A DNA stretch of 53,186 nucleotides from a candidate division WOR-3 bacterium (lineage in GTDB: Bacteria; Hydrothermota; Tepidihabitantia; B3-TA06), in contig CBFGKC010000016.1 in NCBI GenBank assembly GCA_965649265.1, positions 1 through 53,186 of the forward strand, given 5' to 3'. Below are positions 5,869-15,717 of this stretch, in pieces (positions within the stretch are counted from its first letter, which is position 1; every line of letters begins with the position of its first letter). The notes below the pieces were generated by a model, which saw only the letters and a program-made list of their open reading frames with translations, was not told where the DNA came from and did no database searches. Position numbers and translations under genes: made by a program.

Positions 5869-6771
5869 CTACTCTTCTATTGTAGGTTCGTATCTTTCTT
5901 GAGTTATGCTTCGTGTTTTTAGATCTTTTGTAACTTGTTTTATAAAAGTCTCAAAATTGGGATTGTCCGGAAGAAGCTTGTTAATGGTGTCCCAATTTAT
6001 TTCGTAACGGCTATACGCTTGATACTTTACCTCCGATTTGCTCAAGGTATCTTCTTTGTTTAACTTAATCACCCCTATACCAAAACCCGTAGACAGTCTT
6101 TTCAGTTCTGTTTCAAATTCGGGGTTCTCGTCATCAAATATCTCGGCAACTAAGTAACTCTCGTTAGCCCAAGAGGAATTTGATAGTGCTTGAAAAAATG
6201 ATTTCTTCAGGTTCGATAGATACAACTCTTTCTTAACTTCAAAGGAATAAAGCTTAACCAGATTGGCACCCATTTCCTTTGCTAATTCCCATGTTTCTTC
6301 TCGCCATTTTGGCAATCCCGTTTTGGGCAATGAAATATGAACCCCCACAACGTCAGGGTGCAACCACTCATTATCACCTTTTTTTCGCTTCTTTGATTGT
6401 TTATCATTAATAATTTTCGTATACACACCCCATTTTGCGTGAAGCCATCGACATAGAATCGGGTAAAGTATGAACTCCCCTTTCTTTTCATCTTCTACAT
6501 CTTCGATACTTTCGGTTTCTTTTAAGTTTTTGAATGCTTTTTTTTGATGCTTTAAGTAGAATTTGACTGGACGCTGAGTCTTCTCAAAAAGCGTTTCTGG
6601 ATTATCCCGAAGATCCACGTATATAACTGACATTATACTATAATCAGGAGTTTTGCCTTTTGTTTTCCACCCCTTTTTTATTGCTGCTTCCGCGATTTCT
6701 TGGGCAGACATAGGTCGTTGCTCTTCCTCTAAAACCTTACGAACCCAATCTAAAACTGTTATTTTTTCCAT
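5869..6771 (-). CDS. HARE-HTH + PD-(D/E)xK nuclease-like protein (COG2958/HrgA-like)
   Basis: N-terminal wHTH with KGKTP..S; WLHPDVVG and YSFEVKKEL, QALSNSSWANESYLV; low GC. Confidence 0.85.
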   Translation of the reverse strand: MEKITVLDWVRKVLEEEQRPMSAQEIAEAAIKKGWKTKGKTPDYSIMSVIYVDLRDNPETLFEKTQRPVKFYLKHQKKAFKNLKETESIEDVEDEKKGEFILYPILCRWLHAKWGVYTKIINDKQSKKRKKGDNEWLHPDVVGVHISLPKTGLPKWREETWELAKEMGANLVKLYSFEVKKELYLSNLKKSFFQALSNSSWANESYLVAEIFDDENPEFETELKRLSTGFGIGVIKLNKEDTLSKSEVKYQAYSRYEINWDTINKLLPDNPNFETFIKQVTKDLKTRSITQERYEPTIEE

Positions 6772-8862: not shown

Positions 8863-9378
8863 TTAGAGAAAACGAAAAGAATGAAAGAATCTTCCTGCTC
8901 CAGGTTGAAGTAGAACCCATTTCGAGCCGGAAAGAACCGACAACTCATACAACTTTTTGTTCGTATAAAATAACCTGATACGATCCAGACAACCGTCCCC
9001 TCTTAAAACAATAACCTCACGGCCCTCAACACCGTCGAGGAAAATCTTTCTGCTTTTCAGCAATCTGTCGTGGGTAAAAATAATACCTTTGAGAAAGTTA
9101 TCATATATAAAGGGAGGTTCAATGCCTTTCAGGTCCAGGGGGACGTCTGCACACGAAACGTTAAAGAAACCGCCGAACGGCCCAAATGCATAGTAAGAGA
9201 CCACCTTAACGTCAATATTGAAAACCGAATCATGCACAATTTTTTCTTCTTCGCGAAAATCTTCCGGTATCATTACGCTAAACCCGGCCTGCGTGTTTTT
9301 TACCTCCTGCCACTTCGATGCGCAGCCCGTAGTCGCAATAACCAGCCCGACAAACATTGACACATTAAGATATCTCAC
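8863..9378 (-). CDS. Lipoprotein, PsbP/DcrB-like family (paralog 4)
   Basis: Probable GTG start at 9378 after GGAGG (ORF track 9501 includes the promoter); TTGC lipobox, WQEV...GFSVMIP, KLYEL...RFFHSFRF. Confidence 0.75.
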   Translation of the reverse strand: MRYLNVSMFVGLVIATTGCASKWQEVKNTQAGFSVMIPEDFREEEKIVHDSVFNIDVKVVSYYAFGPFGGFFNVSCADVPLDLKGIEPPFIYDNFLKGIIFTHDRLLKSRKIFLDGVEGREVIVLRGDGCLDRIRLFYTNKKLYELSVLSGSKWVLLQPGAGRFFHSFRFL

Positions 9379-9573
9379 ATCGCCTCCGATTCTTTTGTTT
9401 ACATGAATTCTACCTGCGAAACTTTGATTGTCAAGGGCGATTTCCGCTTTCTCGCCCCTCCTTAACTTATGAAAAAGTATTGCACCGATAGGTAAAAGCA
9501 CCGCCCCGGGCGGCGGTAGATAGCGAAAAAGAACAAGATCAAGATACCAATGGGATAAGGAATAACCAACGTC

Positions 9574-11256
9574 CTATTTCTTCTTCCTTTTTGCCATTTT
9601 ACTTTCTTGTTTGGTCATGAACTCTTCTGGAGGGTGAGATAGTTTAGATTTTGGATCAGTTCCAAGAAGAAATTCCATAGTATCAGAATAGTGGTCATCG
9701 TCCTCATCCCTGTTCAAACCTGTAATCCTAATTCCTATTTCATCTAAGAGTTCGGGCTCTTCCTTCAGACGACAGCCCTTCTTAATTTTCCTGTAGAGTT
9801 CCTCTGCTTGTTTGGGCTTTCGAAGTAGAACATACATATCCCCTAAATACATCGTCACGCAATCAAAATGCTCATTCTCAGGAAATTCCTTTAGAAACTC
9901 CATAGCATTTTTTTTAAATTTCTCTACTTTGGGCGAAGTGGGATGGTTGATGATTTCTCTGTAATCCCTCTTGATGTCCGCCCACAAATCTTTTTCAGAA
10001 AGCGGTTTTGTTCTAGTGTGGGGCTGTTGCTGGGCAACAATGCGCAAAGCGTCTTCGAATTCCATATTCATGAAGGGATCTCTATCTAGCAAAGCAATCT
10101 CCTCTTCAATTATGTTCTGGAAATCTCTTCGACTGAATTCGTTTCGGAATTCCAATCCCGCAATAAATGCAGCTCTCGCAAGATCATACGTAGTAATCTT
10201 ATGTTCTGTTGCCACTTTCTCAATTATTGAACGATGCCCTAAAATGTATGCCAACCTTATCTGGCATTCCGGGACGGAAAGATTTCCTGAGGGCAATGCT
10301 CCGTAATCACTTATGGGTATTTTCCCTACATTATATCTGAAATCCGATGGTTCCTCCGGTACTTGGGATGTAAGTACAACCACTGTTCCCTGTTTCTTTG
10401 CCAAGTCCAACATTCTTTCCATAGAGCATGGTTCTGGCTTCTTGGTTTTTCTGTCTTTTGCTAGATTACAATTTCCACCACCGTAACCAGCAACTACTAA
10501 TCCACTGCGAGAATTCTTCAACGCAACTTCGTATTCATTGGATCTCATAAAGGGATTCGTGTATAGAACGCGCACTGAAAAATCGAATTCTTTATCACAA
10601 CGAATAGCAGGATCATATTGAGAAGCAATCTCGGTAATCTTATCTCCTAAGGCTATCCAATCTTTGATGTCCATATTAGAAGAATCCTTAGCAACAACCA
10701 AATGTGAAGCCGGCAATTTATTGAAGCATTCAACTAACCGCTCGTCAGATTTAATGAAGTTACGAACAATATCCTCCGAAGTCGCATCAAGTGCCCCAGT
10801 CTTAGGATCTGTATCAGCCTCTATAGTTCCACCCGTCCTTATAATGTAAAGTTCGTCCAAGCGACTTATAAGCGAGTTTTTTTCTAGTTCTATATCTGCC
10901 TTATAGATTTTAAAATCATCCCACGAACTTTCCCCACCCTTGACTCCAATAAATGCATCCATATCCCATTTTTTTATCTTCATTAAACCGGAAACGATGA
11001 GTTGTTTTCCATAACCGAATACGACCAATACATTATTCGGACCTATCTTGCGATGTGCCCTCGCCAGCAGCTCAACTGCCACGCGAACATTAGGATATCC
11101 ATCAGAAGAGGAATATACAGGTTGCATCGGGAATTGTGAACCTGTCATGATAACGTAATACCGGAAGTTCTTGAGCATGTACTGAAGCATGGTAACCCCC
11201 CATGCCATGGTGTCTGTTCCGTGTGTTACGAGAAACCCTATCTTATCGGCTTTCAT
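9574..11256 (-). CDS. Asparaginase/glutaminase-family protein with permuted catalytic motifs, a TPR-like segment and a C-terminal Ca-binding-like motif
   Basis: THGTDTM at residue ~11, TGGTI and DSSNM..DW at ~140-200, GLVVAGYGGGN and VVVLTSQ C-domain; DEDDDHYSDTMEFLLGTDP tail; own promoter and SD AAAGGAGG. Confidence 0.85.
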   Translation of the reverse strand: MKADKIGFLVTHGTDTMAWGVTMLQYMLKNFRYYVIMTGSQFPMQPVYSSSDGYPNVRVAVELLARAHRKIGPNNVLVVFGYGKQLIVSGLMKIKKWDMDAFIGVKGGESSWDDFKIYKADIELEKNSLISRLDELYIIRTGGTIEADTDPKTGALDATSEDIVRNFIKSDERLVECFNKLPASHLVVAKDSSNMDIKDWIALGDKITEIASQYDPAIRCDKEFDFSVRVLYTNPFMRSNEYEVALKNSRSGLVVAGYGGGNCNLAKDRKTKKPEPCSMERMLDLAKKQGTVVVLTSQVPEEPSDFRYNVGKIPISDYGALPSGNLSVPECQIRLAYILGHRSIIEKVATEHKITTYDLARAAFIAGLEFRNEFSRRDFQNIIEEEIALLDRDPFMNMEFEDALRIVAQQQPHTRTKPLSEKDLWADIKRDYREIINHPTSPKVEKFKKNAMEFLKEFPENEHFDCVTMYLGDMYVLLRKPKQAEELYRKIKKGCRLKEEPELLDEIGIRITGLNRDEDDDHYSDTMEFLLGTDPKSKLSHPPEEFMTKQESKMAKRKKK

Positions 11257-11360
11257 AACTACCCTCCTTTGAGGAACTCCTCAAAAAGACTTTATTTGTC
11301 GAACCTTCTGTCGAGAAAAAATATACGCAAAAGAATAATTTTGTCAAGCCCTTCTGGCCG

Positions 11361-11748: not shown

Positions 11749-12444
11749 TTAATTTAAAAGGGCATAGAGAACGATATTGACGCCCATGCGGAATGCCTGT
11801 TCGCGGACGTCGACAGGGTCGTCGTGGGCAACGGTCCAGCCGTCCGAGGGATTTGAGTTGTAAGTATAGAAAATTACGAGCCTTCCAGCGTCGAATAACC
11901 CGTAACCCTTAGGAGGGCCGTCAACGTGTTTGTGAATTTGCGGCGGCCCGTTATCGAAATCGTAGAAGATGTGATAGATGGGATGATCGAAAGGCAACTC
12001 CACAAACTCCGATTTTGGAAATACTTGCGCGATTTCCTTTCTGAAGGTTGTGTCCATTCCATAGTCGTCGTCGGCGTATAAAAACCCGCCCTGCCGCAAG
12101 TAATCCCTGAGCCTGAGTCTTTCGGATTCCGAAAAACGAATCTCGCCGTGTCCGGTTACGAACAAGAAAGGGTAGTTAGTAAGTTCCATATCTAATAGAG
12201 TTATAACCTTTTGCTCTGGGGTTATCTCCACGTTTGCCCTTGAGACTATCTCGTGAACGAGATTCGGCAGCGCATCGGGATCGTTATACCAGTCACCACC
12301 GCCGCCGTATTGGAGCCGCGCAAGTTGAATAGGTGCTGCAGTTGTGAGTGTGAAAGTGGCGAGAATGCCGGGAAGTACCCAGAGAAAGCCCGAATGCCGC
12401 ATGCGGAGCTTCGTTTGATCCGTCGGCTTTTGCATTGTCCCCAT
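11749..12444 (-). CDS. DUF4159 domain protein (exported)
   Basis: ARLQYGGGGDWYND, YPFLFVTGHG, LRDYL..GGFLYADDDYG, AFRMGVNIVLYAL; the true start may be downstream (e.g. 12402). Confidence 0.88.
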   Translation of the reverse strand: MGTMQKPTDQTKLRMRHSGFLWVLPGILATFTLTTAAPIQLARLQYGGGGDWYNDPDALPNLVHEIVSRANVEITPEQKVITLLDMELTNYPFLFVTGHGEIRFSESERLRLRDYLRQGGFLYADDDYGMDTTFRKEIAQVFPKSEFVELPFDHPIYHIFYDFDNGPPQIHKHVDGPPKGYGLFDAGRLVIFYTYNSNPSDGWTVAHDDPVDVREQAFRMGVNIVLYALLN

Positions 12445-12513
12445 AAGTCTAAAAAATCAAGAAGATATGAAGGCAATCTCTCCAAAGAGTGGGGGGTGGG
12501 CTGAGGAGGGCGT

Positions 12514-13332
12514 TCATACGCCGACGGCAACGTCTAAGAGACGCGTATACGTCGAATATGGAACACGCACACAACCTATTTCTATCCTTCCGGTTCCGTG
12601 AAAATCAGATCCTCCGGTAGCTATCAGATGGTTTTCCAGGGCAAGCGCATATAGCGCATCTTCTAAACTTGGAGAATGCTCCGGATACCAGACTTCTATG
12701 CCGTCAAGATATTCAAGGGTCATCTCCGCGGCGTTGGAAATGCGGTACATGCCTGGATGTGCAAGCACGGCCACACCCTGATGTTCGTGAATTAGTTCGA
12801 CCGCCGCAGGAATAGAAAGTTTAACTTTGGGTACGTAAGCGAGGCCGTCGGGTCCGAGAAAACGGCTGAAAACGTCGTGGATACTTGAGCCCCTGCCTTG
12901 TGCTATGAGGGCTTTGGCAACGTGCAACCTGCCTATTGATTTGCCCTTGGAATAACGCTGCACGTCTTCCATCTCGAGTTCGATGCCGCTTCTTTTGAGC
13001 CGGTCCAGTATGTCGGATGCCCTTTCGGTTCTTTTCATCTGATACCATTCAAGCTTTTCTTCGAGTTCGTCTTCCCTGCCCGGTGCAAAGTATCCTATTA
13101 TGTGAATTTCGGTCCCCTCAAGTTCGCATGAGAGTTCCACGCCTGAAAGAATCTCAACCCCCAGTCCCTTTGCCGCCGATCGCGCTTCTTCGATTCCCGC
13201 GACGGTATCGTGATCGGTTATCGATATGGCCTTGAGATTTACATCATGGGCGAGCTTTACCACCTCCTCAGGCGAGAAAAGCCCGTCGGAATAACTAGTG
13301 TGTATATGGAGATCTGCCGATGAACCTGTCAC
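12514..13332 (-). CDS. PHP-domain phosphoesterase (TrpH/YciV-like)
   Basis: DLHIHT.YSDG, ITDHD, GVELS, HIIGY, LAHP, TGGSDFHG. Confidence 0.93.
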   Translation of the reverse strand: MTGSSADLHIHTSYSDGLFSPEEVVKLAHDVNLKAISITDHDTVAGIEEARSAAKGLGVEILSGVELSCELEGTEIHIIGYFAPGREDELEEKLEWYQMKRTERASDILDRLKRSGIELEMEDVQRYSKGKSIGRLHVAKALIAQGRGSSIHDVFSRFLGPDGLAYVPKVKLSIPAAVELIHEHQGVAVLAHPGMYRISNAAEMTLEYLDGIEVWYPEHSPSLEDALYALALENHLIATGGSDFHGTGRIEIGCVRVPYSTYTRLLDVAVGV

Positions 13333-14168
13333 GCGCTTATATCTTTTGGAACCAAGTTAAGATTCTTGGACACTCTTTCGATGATTAGTTCGTCAATCTT
13401 GGGCTTGCGTTGTATGTAGCCTTCAATCATGGCATTATCGCATACGATGTTGACGAGTCTGGGTCTGCCTCCGGAGAAGGAGGCCACCGCATCAAGTGCT
13501 TTTTCGGTAAAAATGGGTTCTGTACCACCCGCGATGCGGACGCGGTGCTGAACGTAGGCTCTGACCGCATCCACCGTCAGTGGATTAAGGGTGACGCGGA
13601 CGGCAATGCGCTGGTAGAGTGCGGCATTCTGTGCAAGGTTGACCTCAAGATCGGGCAGACCGATCATGATAAAAGTTACCAGTTTTCTCCCGTCGGCCGT
13701 TTCCAGGTTCAGGAATCCGCGAAGTTCTTCTATTGTGTCCGGGTCGTCCATCTTGTTCGCCTCGTCAATGAAGATGACCGTCTTTCTGCCACCGTTGTAG
13801 ACCTCAAAAAGCCGGTTGACGAGTTCTGAGAAAAGGTAGGAAGAATCCTCGTTGGGTTCCTCTATATCCATGAGTACCGCGAGCTTCTCCAAAAGCCAGC
13901 GGGGCTTTACTGAATGGGTAAGGACAATCATGCCGATATAGTAGCGCTCGTCGGATTCGAGTTCGGAGAGAATCCTGCGGGAAAGGGTCGTTTTACCTGT
14001 CCCAATCTCACCCAGAAGGAGCGCAAGGCCCCTACCCCTTTCGGCGGCATGCAGGAGATACTCTCTTGCAACCGCGTGCTGAGGGCTGTTGAAGTAAAAA
14101 CGCGGATCGGGTTGAACCGCGAAAGGTTCGTATTTCAGTCTATAAAATGTTTCGTATGCCATAATCAA
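13329..14168 (-). CDS. ExeA/GspA-family AAA ATPase
   Basis: Y.TFY.L..EPF..QPDP.F start, Walker A GEIGTGKT, Walker B FIDEA, SGGRPRLVNIVCDNA. Confidence 0.92.
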   Translation of the reverse strand: MIMAYETFYRLKYEPFAVQPDPRFYFNSPQHAVAREYLLHAAERGRGLALLLGEIGTGKTTLSRRILSELESDERYYIGMIVLTHSVKPRWLLEKLAVLMDIEEPNEDSSYLFSELVNRLFEVYNGGRKTVIFIDEANKMDDPDTIEELRGFLNLETADGRKLVTFIMIGLPDLEVNLAQNAALYQRIAVRVTLNPLTVDAVRAYVQHRVRIAGGTEPIFTEKALDAVASFSGGRPRLVNIVCDNAMIEGYIQRKPKIDELIIERVSKNLNLVPKDISA

Positions 14169-15118
14169 ATAAAGTGTATTGGTCCCGAGGACTTACCGTC
14201 CCCGGGATGGTTTTGTTTATCATCCGACAATTCAGGAATGTCGCCTATTATTTTCGGTCCCTGCTTCTTTTTCCCGGTCATCTCATCAAGCCGTCTGCGA
14301 ATATCTGAGGCTTCCTCGAATTTTCCGGATTCATCGTAAGCCTTTGCCAGAGCACCAAGAATAACTTCCTTTAACTTGAGTTCCCTTTCCGCCCCGTCCT
14401 CTTCGACAAGAAAGGCAACAAGAATCTCGCGGTCCTCGGGATGTGAAAGCAATGAAAGCAGTTCGTTGAATCCTTCAAGCGAGGGGTTACTTCGGTAGAC
14501 GGACTTCTTTTCAAAGAAAGCCTCAGACCAAAGCTCCTCTTCACTGAAAAATTTGGCAAGTTCATCCCTCTTTGCCTGATTATCCACTGCATTCGCGATG
14601 CTGGGTTCTATGGATGAAAGAAAATCCATGATGCTTATGCTAGAGAGGTCAACGGTTGATTTCATCTCGACGTCAGGTTTTATCTCCGGCAAGGCTTCTT
14701 CGACCTCTTCTTCAATAATGGCGCTATCCGGACTCTTCTCTTGTCCGGAAACCTCTTCGTGTAACGGACCGGCCTCCATGATAGGTGGCGGCTCAGCAAG
14801 CCTGGAGGAGGAGGGGGGCTCTTGCGCCGTTGTTTCCTCCGTCGATCTGGTGTCGAAGCCCATCCTTGCCACTATGTCATCAATATCGGCTCCTGTAAGT
14901 CCCTTAACCCTTTCCAGGCCCCTTTTTGCTATCTGATTAGTTTCGTCTATGGATAAAACCTTCTCGTAGAGTTTTATAGCCTGGTCTTGCTGTCCTCTTT
15001 CAGCGTACATCTGGGCTGCCATGAGATACTCGGTCAGGGCTTCCACCTTGAAACCGATTTGCATAAGCAGTCCTGCCAGCTCGGCTTTTCCTGCAGGATC
15101 AAGACCTTCGTTTCTCAT
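14165..15118 (-). CDS. TPR-containing protein
   Basis: A..Y..RGQ.DQAIKLYEKVL.ID TPR, acidic linker, C-terminal helical repeat; overlaps both neighbours. Confidence 0.8.
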   Translation of the reverse strand: MRNEGLDPAGKAELAGLLMQIGFKVEALTEYLMAAQMYAERGQQDQAIKLYEKVLSIDETNQIAKRGLERVKGLTGADIDDIVARMGFDTRSTEETTAQEPPSSSRLAEPPPIMEAGPLHEEVSGQEKSPDSAIIEEEVEEALPEIKPDVEMKSTVDLSSISIMDFLSSIEPSIANAVDNQAKRDELAKFFSEEELWSEAFFEKKSVYRSNPSLEGFNELLSLLSHPEDREILVAFLVEEDGAERELKLKEVILGALAKAYDESGKFEEASDIRRRLDEMTGKKKQGPKIIGDIPELSDDKQNHPGDGKSSGPIHFI

Positions 15119-15717
15119 GGTTCCTCATACAATTGACCGTATTCAATCTGGATTTGCGTAGCCTCCTCATAGTTACCTCGACCTTGGAGAGCAAAAATTA
15201 CATTCTCGACAATTCTTCGAGCCTCACCCTTTTGTCCTAAATGTGCCATTATTTTAGCCATCTTGAGGGCCAAGTCAAGATTTTCCTCGTCGATGCTGAC
15301 TATCTTCTTGGCAATCATGTAAGCGGCGTGAGGGTTATTCTTTTTTCTGAAAAACTCGAATTCCCTGAGGAGATATTCGTACGCTCCTCTGTCCAAACCC
15401 ATTGAGATGTAAAGGTCCGCGCGGCGGATGCGCAGACCTACGTCGGACGGCGAAAGCGCTTCAAGTCTCGCCGCAGACGCCATGGCAAGCACAAATCTGT
15501 CCTGTTCTATCGCCTGCCGCATGGCATATCCCAGCGTAGCCAGGGCTTCCTGATTCTTTCCCTGTGTCAGGAAAACGAGTCCCTGATAGTAAAGAATCTC
15601 AGCGGATTCCGGAGAATTCTTCGCCTCATCCGCAAGCATCTTCTGAGCCTCTTCCCACTTTTTTTCCCTGGTAAGAGTTCTGAGAGTCTGGCGAATATTG
15701 TCAGAGATCATAAACAA
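15115..15717 (-). CDS. TPR-containing protein
   Basis: Helical TPR-like repeats (YYQGLVFL.QGK..EAL); translationally coupled to both neighbours. Confidence 0.8.
   Translation of the reverse strand: MFMISDNIRQTLRTLTREKKWEEAQKMLADEAKNSPESAEILYYQGLVFLTQGKNQEALATLGYAMRQAIEQDRFVLAMASAARLEALSPSDVGLRIRRADLYISMGLDRGAYEYLLREFEFFRKKNNPHAAYMIAKKIVSIDEENLDLALKMAKIMAHLGQKGEARRIVENVIFALQGRGNYEEATQIQIEYGQLYEEP

Follow-up and report, generated by a model that had tools for sequence, protein, structure and literature searches.

A class-1 asparaginase-family protein with a circularly permuted N-terminal domain in a candidate division WOR-3 bacterium

P0001, a protein encoded on the minus strand of a contig from a candidate division WOR-3 bacterium (GCA_965649265.1, contig CBFGKC010000016.1; the 53,186 nucleotides analysed, positions 1–53,186, are referred to here as the window), carries the motifs of a class-1 asparaginase in a swapped order. 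We give a probability of roughly 0.8 to the reading that P0001 belongs to the class-1 L-asparaginase/GatD superfamily as a cytoplasmic and probably active amidohydrolase with a Thr nucleophile, and that its N-terminal domain is circularly permuted. Proteins with the same order are widespread and form a single, uncharacterised clade; the arrangement appears not to have been described. The coding sequence (CDS) and its core are laid out as follows.

9574..11256, minus strand: CDS of P0001 (560 aa), a permuted protein of the class-1 asparaginase family that carries a helical tail at its C-terminus
10942..11256, minus strand: segment B, aa 1–105, equivalent to canonical N-domain positions ~77–171, with HGTDT (T14, D15), TGSQ and Lys93
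10861..10941, minus strand: new connector from the end of the N-domain hairpin to strand β1, aa 106–132
10612..10860, minus strand: segment A, aa 133–215, equivalent to canonical N-domain positions ~2–78, with β1 and TGGT (T141), hairpin, helix, DSS strand (S192) and helix
10207..10584, minus strand: asparaginase C-terminal domain, aa 225–350, with the GYGGGN loop and the invariant Y308
10024..10206, minus strand: C-terminal extension X, aa 351–411, with FIAGLEFRN

Four independent comparisons establish that the motif order is swapped. The colinear superfamily order is TGGT-DS-HGTDT-Lys-linker-C-domain; P0001 instead runs HGTDT-Lys-TGGT-DS-C, with HGTDT at residues 12–16, TGSQ at 38–41, KIKK at 93–96, TGGTI at 141–145, DSSNM at 191–195 and GYGGGN at 257–262. 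The Pfam N-domain model PF00710 scores 82.1 bits on P0001 (cut-off 22.5), and a whole-genome scan at the same cut-off divides it into two pieces, with 10945–11244(-) matching profile positions 77–171 at 56.7 bits and, downstream, 10612–10851(-) matching positions 2–78 at 28.6 bits. By BLASTP against the normal-order GatD of the same genome, P0001 residues 1–67, 138–156 and 215–349 pair with 171–235, 102–120 and 301–423, respectively; against the normal-order protein P0167, residues 7–128 pair with 87–208 and residues 187–207 with 55–75. Finally, segment hidden Markov models (HMMs) for B (aa 1–105), A (133–215), C (225–350) and X (351–405), built from an alignment of 52 family members (A1), are met as B-A-C along P0001, whereas 63 normal-order proteins show A-B-C, the segment-A HMM matching these at their N-termini. 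Segment B, which corresponds to Pfam profile positions 77–171, also aligned with residues 76–166 of Pyrococcus horikoshii PhAI (1wls). The C-domain is matched over aa 228–348 by PF17763, at 44.8 bits against a cut-off of 34.6. A first-pass annotation had described this motif order, with a normal C-domain behind the swapped halves, and had proposed alignment to E. coli AnsA/AnsB, from which it expected two swapped high-scoring pairs; its motifs lie where it placed them, the C-domain match is above cut-off, and the high-scoring pairs against GatD and P0167 are swapped. In strict terms only the N-domain is circularly permuted in B-A-C, the C-domain being joined to the end of A and not to the end of B.

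The chain presents segment B first (HGTDT, TGSQ and the catalytic Lys) and segment A second (the TGGT nucleophile strand, the gating hairpin and the DSS substrate loop), with the C-domain then leaving from A rather than B. Prediction gives it the usual asparaginase fold and the usual "intimate dimer", where the C-domain of one subunit would complete the active site of the other. Most likely, the enzyme would hydrolyse L-Asn and/or L-Gln at the side-chain amide.

The relevant passages of a structural review (PMC8256714) give Thr12, Tyr25, Thr89, Asp90 and Lys162 as the catalytic residues of EcAII, and place the active site between β1 and β3 of a left-handed crossover, at the intimate-dimer interface. 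They also state that in type 1 enzymes the catalytic Tyr is supplied by the partner's C-domain, and that a linker-less, two-piece P. furiosus enzyme is active. P0001 keeps T141, T14, D15, K93, S192 and Y308. Both catalytic Thr, which the first-pass annotation had described as retained, correspond by alignment to T141 and T14, while K93 is aligned to the Lys of PhAI "ASKIRS" and Y308 to the Tyr of PhAI "RYKVG". Across alignment A1, residues T11 to T16, T141 to T144, D191, S192 and Y308 are invariant and K93 is conserved in at least 90% of members; the TGGT motif survives in 153 of the 157 permuted proteins, HGTDT in 151 and the Lys in 155. Beyond this classic set, the family has residues of its own: Y26 and K29 are invariant, and W19, W97 and R371 nearly so. 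No Tyr occurs in the loop after TGGT; the invariant Y308, aligned to the 1wls Tyr, lies within the predicted interface (299–313).

The single-chain model of P0001 is confident, and within the core the connector has the lowest predicted local distance difference test score (pLDDT 74 for aa 121–130). Modelled as a homodimer, aa 1–410 scored 0.84 against 0.01 for the best control; the runs agreed in at least 97% of contacts, with a partner pLDDT of at least 86. Of 30 proteins solved as homomers, 20 attain the mark for a dimer, as does 1 of 23 solved as single chains; these counts hold only roughly because our own alignment was supplied. In the predicted interface, the partner's GYGGGN loop (258–266) contacts D15, K96 and S193/N194, so that the A and B pieces would converge on one pocket as they do in a normal enzyme. 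Sequence homology, model confidence and this list of dimer contacts together suggest that segment A occupies its canonical position.

The permuted order is conserved well beyond P0001. We classified 259 proteins (258 fetched, together with the genome's own GatD) by segment HMM order, of which 157 run B-A-C and 63 A-B-C, with incomplete sets of segments in the others (AB 12, BC 10, AC 6, C 6, BA 4, B 1). A cruder motif expression applied to the 258 gave 153 permuted, 58 canonical and 47 other. The homolog search that the first-pass annotation had suggested recovers the same order in 157 of the 259 retrieved proteins. A word-indexed search with P0001 returned 618 matches at E≤1e-3 among 8000 scored candidates, and the 119 non-self matches listed covered 66–97% of the query at 30–40% identity. 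An exhaustive search of representatives returned 619 matches, 40 of them at E≤1e-30 and 72 at E≤1e-10, in which colinear one-stretch matches over aa 1–~405 rank above the normal-order asparaginases; the latter match P0001 in two to three pieces, at E ~1e-13 and weaker. On contigs from one genome per species, 95 of 144 candidate stretches were confirmed, with long colinear matches at ~57 loci (L004–L060). The bacterial hosts include Acidobacteriota/Thermoanaerobaculia, Bacteroidales, Anaerolineae/Chloroflexia, Ignavibacteriales, Delongbacteria, Cloacimonadota and Myxococcales, and the archaeal hosts Heimdall-/Promethearchaeati, Thermoplasmata and Nitrososphaerota.

The permuted proteins vary in what surrounds the core: of the 157, 61 are bare cores, and more than 100 aa are added N-terminally in 69 and C-terminally in 27. 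Extension X is found in 149 of them. Receiver domains are frequent among the N-terminal additions (28 of the 119 matches listed carry PF00072). Asgard members of ~816 aa join the permuted core to a C-terminal half with a weak match to class-I glutamine amidotransferases (GATase-like; E 1.1e-5 in P0016, 0.012 in P0015). This Asgard set comprises P0015, P0016, P0021 and loci L004, L044, L046 and L048, and its neighbourhood is locally conserved, with a TrmB-like regulator, a methyltransferase and an alpha/beta hydrolase. In one fused member, P0124, the receiver at aa 184–283 also matches cREC_REC (PF20274) at 25.6 bits, under the cut-off of 27.

To place these proteins, we built a tree with FastTree (LG+gamma) from 304 match columns of A, B and C in 221 sequences. 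All 157 permuted proteins fall in one clade (SH-like support 1.0, branch 0.80), whose sister is a group of nine normal-order proteins (support 0.965). Extension X, otherwise specific to the permuted family, occurs in this sister group in P0167, P0170 and P0179 as well as in the fragment P0252. The order of the X-bearing sisters is normal, with PF00710 matching as one piece (up to 1–190 of 193), and BLASTP of P0001 against P0167 is colinear through FIAGLEFRN/FIAGVKFTN to aa ~411. The permuted family seems to have a single origin, in a type-I-like subfamily in which the C-terminal extension was already present. Separately, we considered a duplication relic in P0144, P0160 and P0157, where the Pfam match to segment B stretches back to profile position ~46–65; this stretch is a single helix ending a receiver-like domain, with no second TGGT or DS, and the relic was rejected. 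A second A or B HMM match was found in none of the 259 proteins.

We found no description of a naturally permuted class-1 asparaginase, or of a receiver-asparaginase protein, in full-text searches of the open literature, whose matches were judged from listings and abstracts. The string "permut" is absent, by full-text term search, from two recent asparaginase surveys, the structural review PMC8256714 and a large annotation study, PMC9500103. No curated family or solved structure with the permuted order was found. None of the NCBIfam models tested reached its cut-off on P0001 or on the bare-core P0022, and the ESM Atlas returned generic asparaginase/GatD clusters only (0.91–0.94). Among the matches listed, the source names of permuted proteins read only "asparaginase domain-containing protein". 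The first-pass annotation had named an already defined family as grounds for withdrawing its claim; no such curated family was found, and the NCBIfam equivalog and subfamily models tested miss both proteins.

Several points weigh against reading P0001 as a permuted, probably active amidohydrolase. Type 2 enzymes have a flexible-loop Tyr for which P0001 offers no equivalent after TGGT, and the type-1-style role of Y308 is one that we infer, as we do substrate and activity for every family member. The dimer score may reflect the model's memory of, or the likeness of P0001 to, solved asparaginase dimers. On the side of the tree, the segment HMMs were derived from the permuted family, and the normal-order proteins included were those among the best 150 representatives. 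The frequent receiver fusions and the Asgard GATase-like fusions hint at a role that may not be plain asparagine catabolism. Nor is there a conserved neighbour gene: when the open reading frames (ORFs) of 57 loci were clustered, the best cluster was present in only 7 of the 51 loci with a family member and was clade-local. This cluster (LeuRS, a PKD protein and others) reflects local synteny in Acidobacteriota, and we rejected it as a functional linkage.

We speculate, tentatively, that the permuted proteins are a distinct, undescribed class of Thr-amidohydrolase that arose once, by movement of the left-handed β1-α-β3 crossover unit behind the rest of the catalytic domain, and that has since spread by gene transfer, moving between archaea and bacteria. 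The rewiring and the FxxGxxFR extension would then confer a substrate or a regulation unlike those of known asparaginases, and the repeated fusions (receiver, GATase-like, TPR/TSP3-like) would reflect this change.

It is less probable, and in our view unlikely, that the family generates ammonia in the manner of GatD, or deamidates some bound substrate (peptidyl-Asn/Gln, aminoacyl-tRNA or another amide), and does not hydrolyse free asparagine; the permutation and the FxxGxxFR extension would then reshape access to the active site. The top Foldseek match to P0001 is GatD (1zq1_A), a GatD model fits it about as well as a type I asparaginase model does (69 versus 81 bits), and the family's own Y26, K29, W19, W97 and R371 and its fusions to receiver domains and, in P0016 and P0015, to a GATase-like half would suit such a role. 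However, no partner gene is conserved beside the family at the 51 loci, the genome already encodes a bona fide GatD-GatE pair, and both GSQ and the substrate-loop DSS(D/N)M resemble those of type I. Far more improbable still is a protein without catalytic activity that keeps only the fold, as a scaffold or regulator: 4 of the 157 members do not have TGGT, one homolog (L047) reads CGGA and GSS at the two motifs, and the helical tail of P0001 could be a protein-binding module, but T141, T14, D15, K93, S192 and Y308 are all kept in P0001 and are invariant or nearly so in the family. That the swapped order is an artefact of assembly or gene calling (a chimeric contig or mis-joined halves), a concern since P0001 lies on one contig only, is effectively refuted by conservation: 157 proteins share the order, and they come from independent assemblies that include complete metagenome-assembled genome (MAG) chromosomes (L042, L047). 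P0001 itself is one unbroken ORF with its own Shine-Dalgarno sequence and a confident single-chain model. The first-pass annotation had counted misassembly at the junction and a lack of homologs with this order among the grounds against its proposal; such homologs exist in number.

Part of the interest of the permuted arrangement lies in the fold. Class-1 L-asparaginases are heavily studied, and are used as leukaemia drugs and in food processing. A natural, widespread swapped form shows that the fold accepts new termini beside the HGTDT strand as well as a different route into the C-domain, a tolerance useful for engineering, for instance of new fusion points or split enzymes. The family also provides a clear example of an apparently single permutation event whose normal-order sister group still survives. 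Judged from domain composition, the receiver fusions suggest an amidohydrolase under two-component control. Automated annotation says only "asparaginase domain-containing", and the curated equivalog and subfamily models tested all miss the permuted proteins.

The gene looks horizontally acquired. Its GC content is 41.1% (39.8% at third codon positions, GC3) against 51.3% for the 2.74-Mb genome, and 1.15% of 5404 equal-sized windows are as low. No permuted homolog was found in the 10 genomes of the same family (81–96% complete), where weak matches fell on ORFs of GatD-like length; among 30 relatives, the one genome with a permuted homolog, G025, belongs to another family of the same class, and there the homolog is split over two contigs. 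The nearest proteins of the same full architecture are 33–43% identical to P0001, and one of them is archaeal. An earlier description of the gene as AT-rich and probably acquired agrees with both the GC contrast and the search of the 10 same-family genomes, none of which yielded a permuted counterpart.

Elsewhere in the genome, outside the window, G000:C2:18238-21416 (loci L001 and L088) encodes an archaeal-type GatD (513 bits, cut-off 324), with GatE directly beside it (444.8 bits, cut-off 319.55); a GatB-like gene lies on contig C12. The genome is bacterial by nine sigma-70 region-2 matches, yet it encodes this archaeal-type GatD-GatE. The ORFs with weak matches in all 10 same-family genomes are of GatD-like length (462–493 aa).

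The signals at the two ends of the gene are as follows.

11262..11269, minus strand: Shine-Dalgarno sequence AAGGAGGG, 5 nt before the ATG, read from the sequence
11347..11320, minus strand: promoter-like TTGACA-16-TATATT, an 11/12 consensus match only
9518..9499, minus strand: terminator-like GC hairpin 3′ of the stop codon, a consensus match only

The ORF runs unbroken for 560 codons, and stand-alone relatives begin at the same point as P0001 (M..IGILITHGTDT), so the protein is not N-terminally truncated. This agrees with the first-pass annotation, which had placed a promoter and a strong Shine-Dalgarno sequence before MKADK; the Shine-Dalgarno sequence stands, while the promoter is a mere consensus match because the scan gave 8 such sites where 4.7 were expected.

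Behind extension X, the protein continues into a tail with two putative elements.

9715..9999, minus strand: helical-repeat tail, aa 420–514, common to P0002–P0004 and L047
9652..9708, minus strand: degenerate TSP3-like acidic motif DEDDDHYSDTMEFLLGTDP, aa 517–535

This tail of ~150 aa is found within the family only in P0001, P0002–P0004 and L047. By eye, DEDDDHYSDTMEFLLGTDP aligned with DSD(G/N)DGWCDAIE..GSDP of P0003, P0004 and L047. The TSP3_bac model (PF18884) scores 21.9 bits on L047 and 19.9 on P0004, both under the cut-off of 25, and gave no match at E≤10 in the tail of P0001. A match to the NCBIfam model Amuc_1099 (E 0.034, 13.7 bits) was rejected as noise on the acidic motif. Tentatively, the tail is a helical repeat followed by a degenerate TSP3-like motif, whose role may be to bind a partner or Ca2+. 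The acidic motif claimed at first pass is present, and the TPR-like and Ca-binding readings attached to the tail are weakly supported. L047 (L047:5947-7551, on a Thermoplasmata MAG chromosome) is the closest homolog of full architecture, and has CGGA and GSS in place of TGGT and DSS; the Cys at the nucleophile position in L047 and in the sister P0167 may mark a thiol variant or an inactive copy.

Downstream of the P0001 gene, the ORF at 8863-9501 (-) is listed at 212 aa, has 43.2% GC and is matched by neither Pfam nor NCBIfam. Translation from an internal start would yield a lipoprotein-like signal (…LVIATTGC). A promoter-like site lies at 9434..9407, and the ORF may have been acquired along with the asparaginase gene. 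A second low-GC island (37.5% against 51.3%) at 5869-6771 (-) encodes a HARE-HTH protein, just upstream of hutU (59.6% GC). Upstream of P0001, a same-strand run at 11749-15717 (-) encodes a DUF4159 protein, a PHP-domain protein, an AAA_22 ATPase and two TPR proteins, after which come an amidohydrolase and an epimerase; its GC content of ~0.50 is normal, and no link to the P0001 gene was seen.

Among characterised enzymes, we compared P0001 with type 1 (cytosolic/archaeal) L-asparaginases such as those of P. horikoshii (PhAI, 1wls), P. furiosus (4q0m), Thermococcus kodakarensis (5ot0), Escherichia coli (EcAI, 2p2d) and guinea pig (CpAI, 5dnc). Unlike in these enzymes, the halves of the N-domain are swapped, the C-domain is attached after helix α2 of segment A, and the protein carries an extra conserved C-terminal extension followed by the 150-aa helical/TSP3-like tail. 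The type I model TIGR00519 scores 81.2 bits on P0001 (cut-off 260.5), the type II model TIGR00520 31 bits (cut-off 314.3), and the GatD models TIGR02153 and NF003217 65.6 and 69 bits (cut-offs 324 and 310). Archaeal GatD (Glu-tRNA(Gln) amidotransferase subunit D; 1zq1, 2d6f) provides the best Foldseek match, 1zq1_A; however, P0001 has neither the GatD N-terminal domain nor an adjacent GatE, and its order is permuted, unlike the separate true GatD of the same genome, at 513 bits. The other permuted architectures, receiver-fused proteins of ~540 aa and Asgard proteins of ~816 aa, share the core and extension of P0001 at 33–40% identity over aa 1–405 and carry different added domains, P0001 having neither a receiver nor a GATase-like domain. 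The metagenomic sisters P0167, P0170 and P0179 share the extension FxxGxxF(R/T/S) with the permuted family and, unlike P0001, retain the normal A-B-C order, with CGGT in place of TGGT in P0167.
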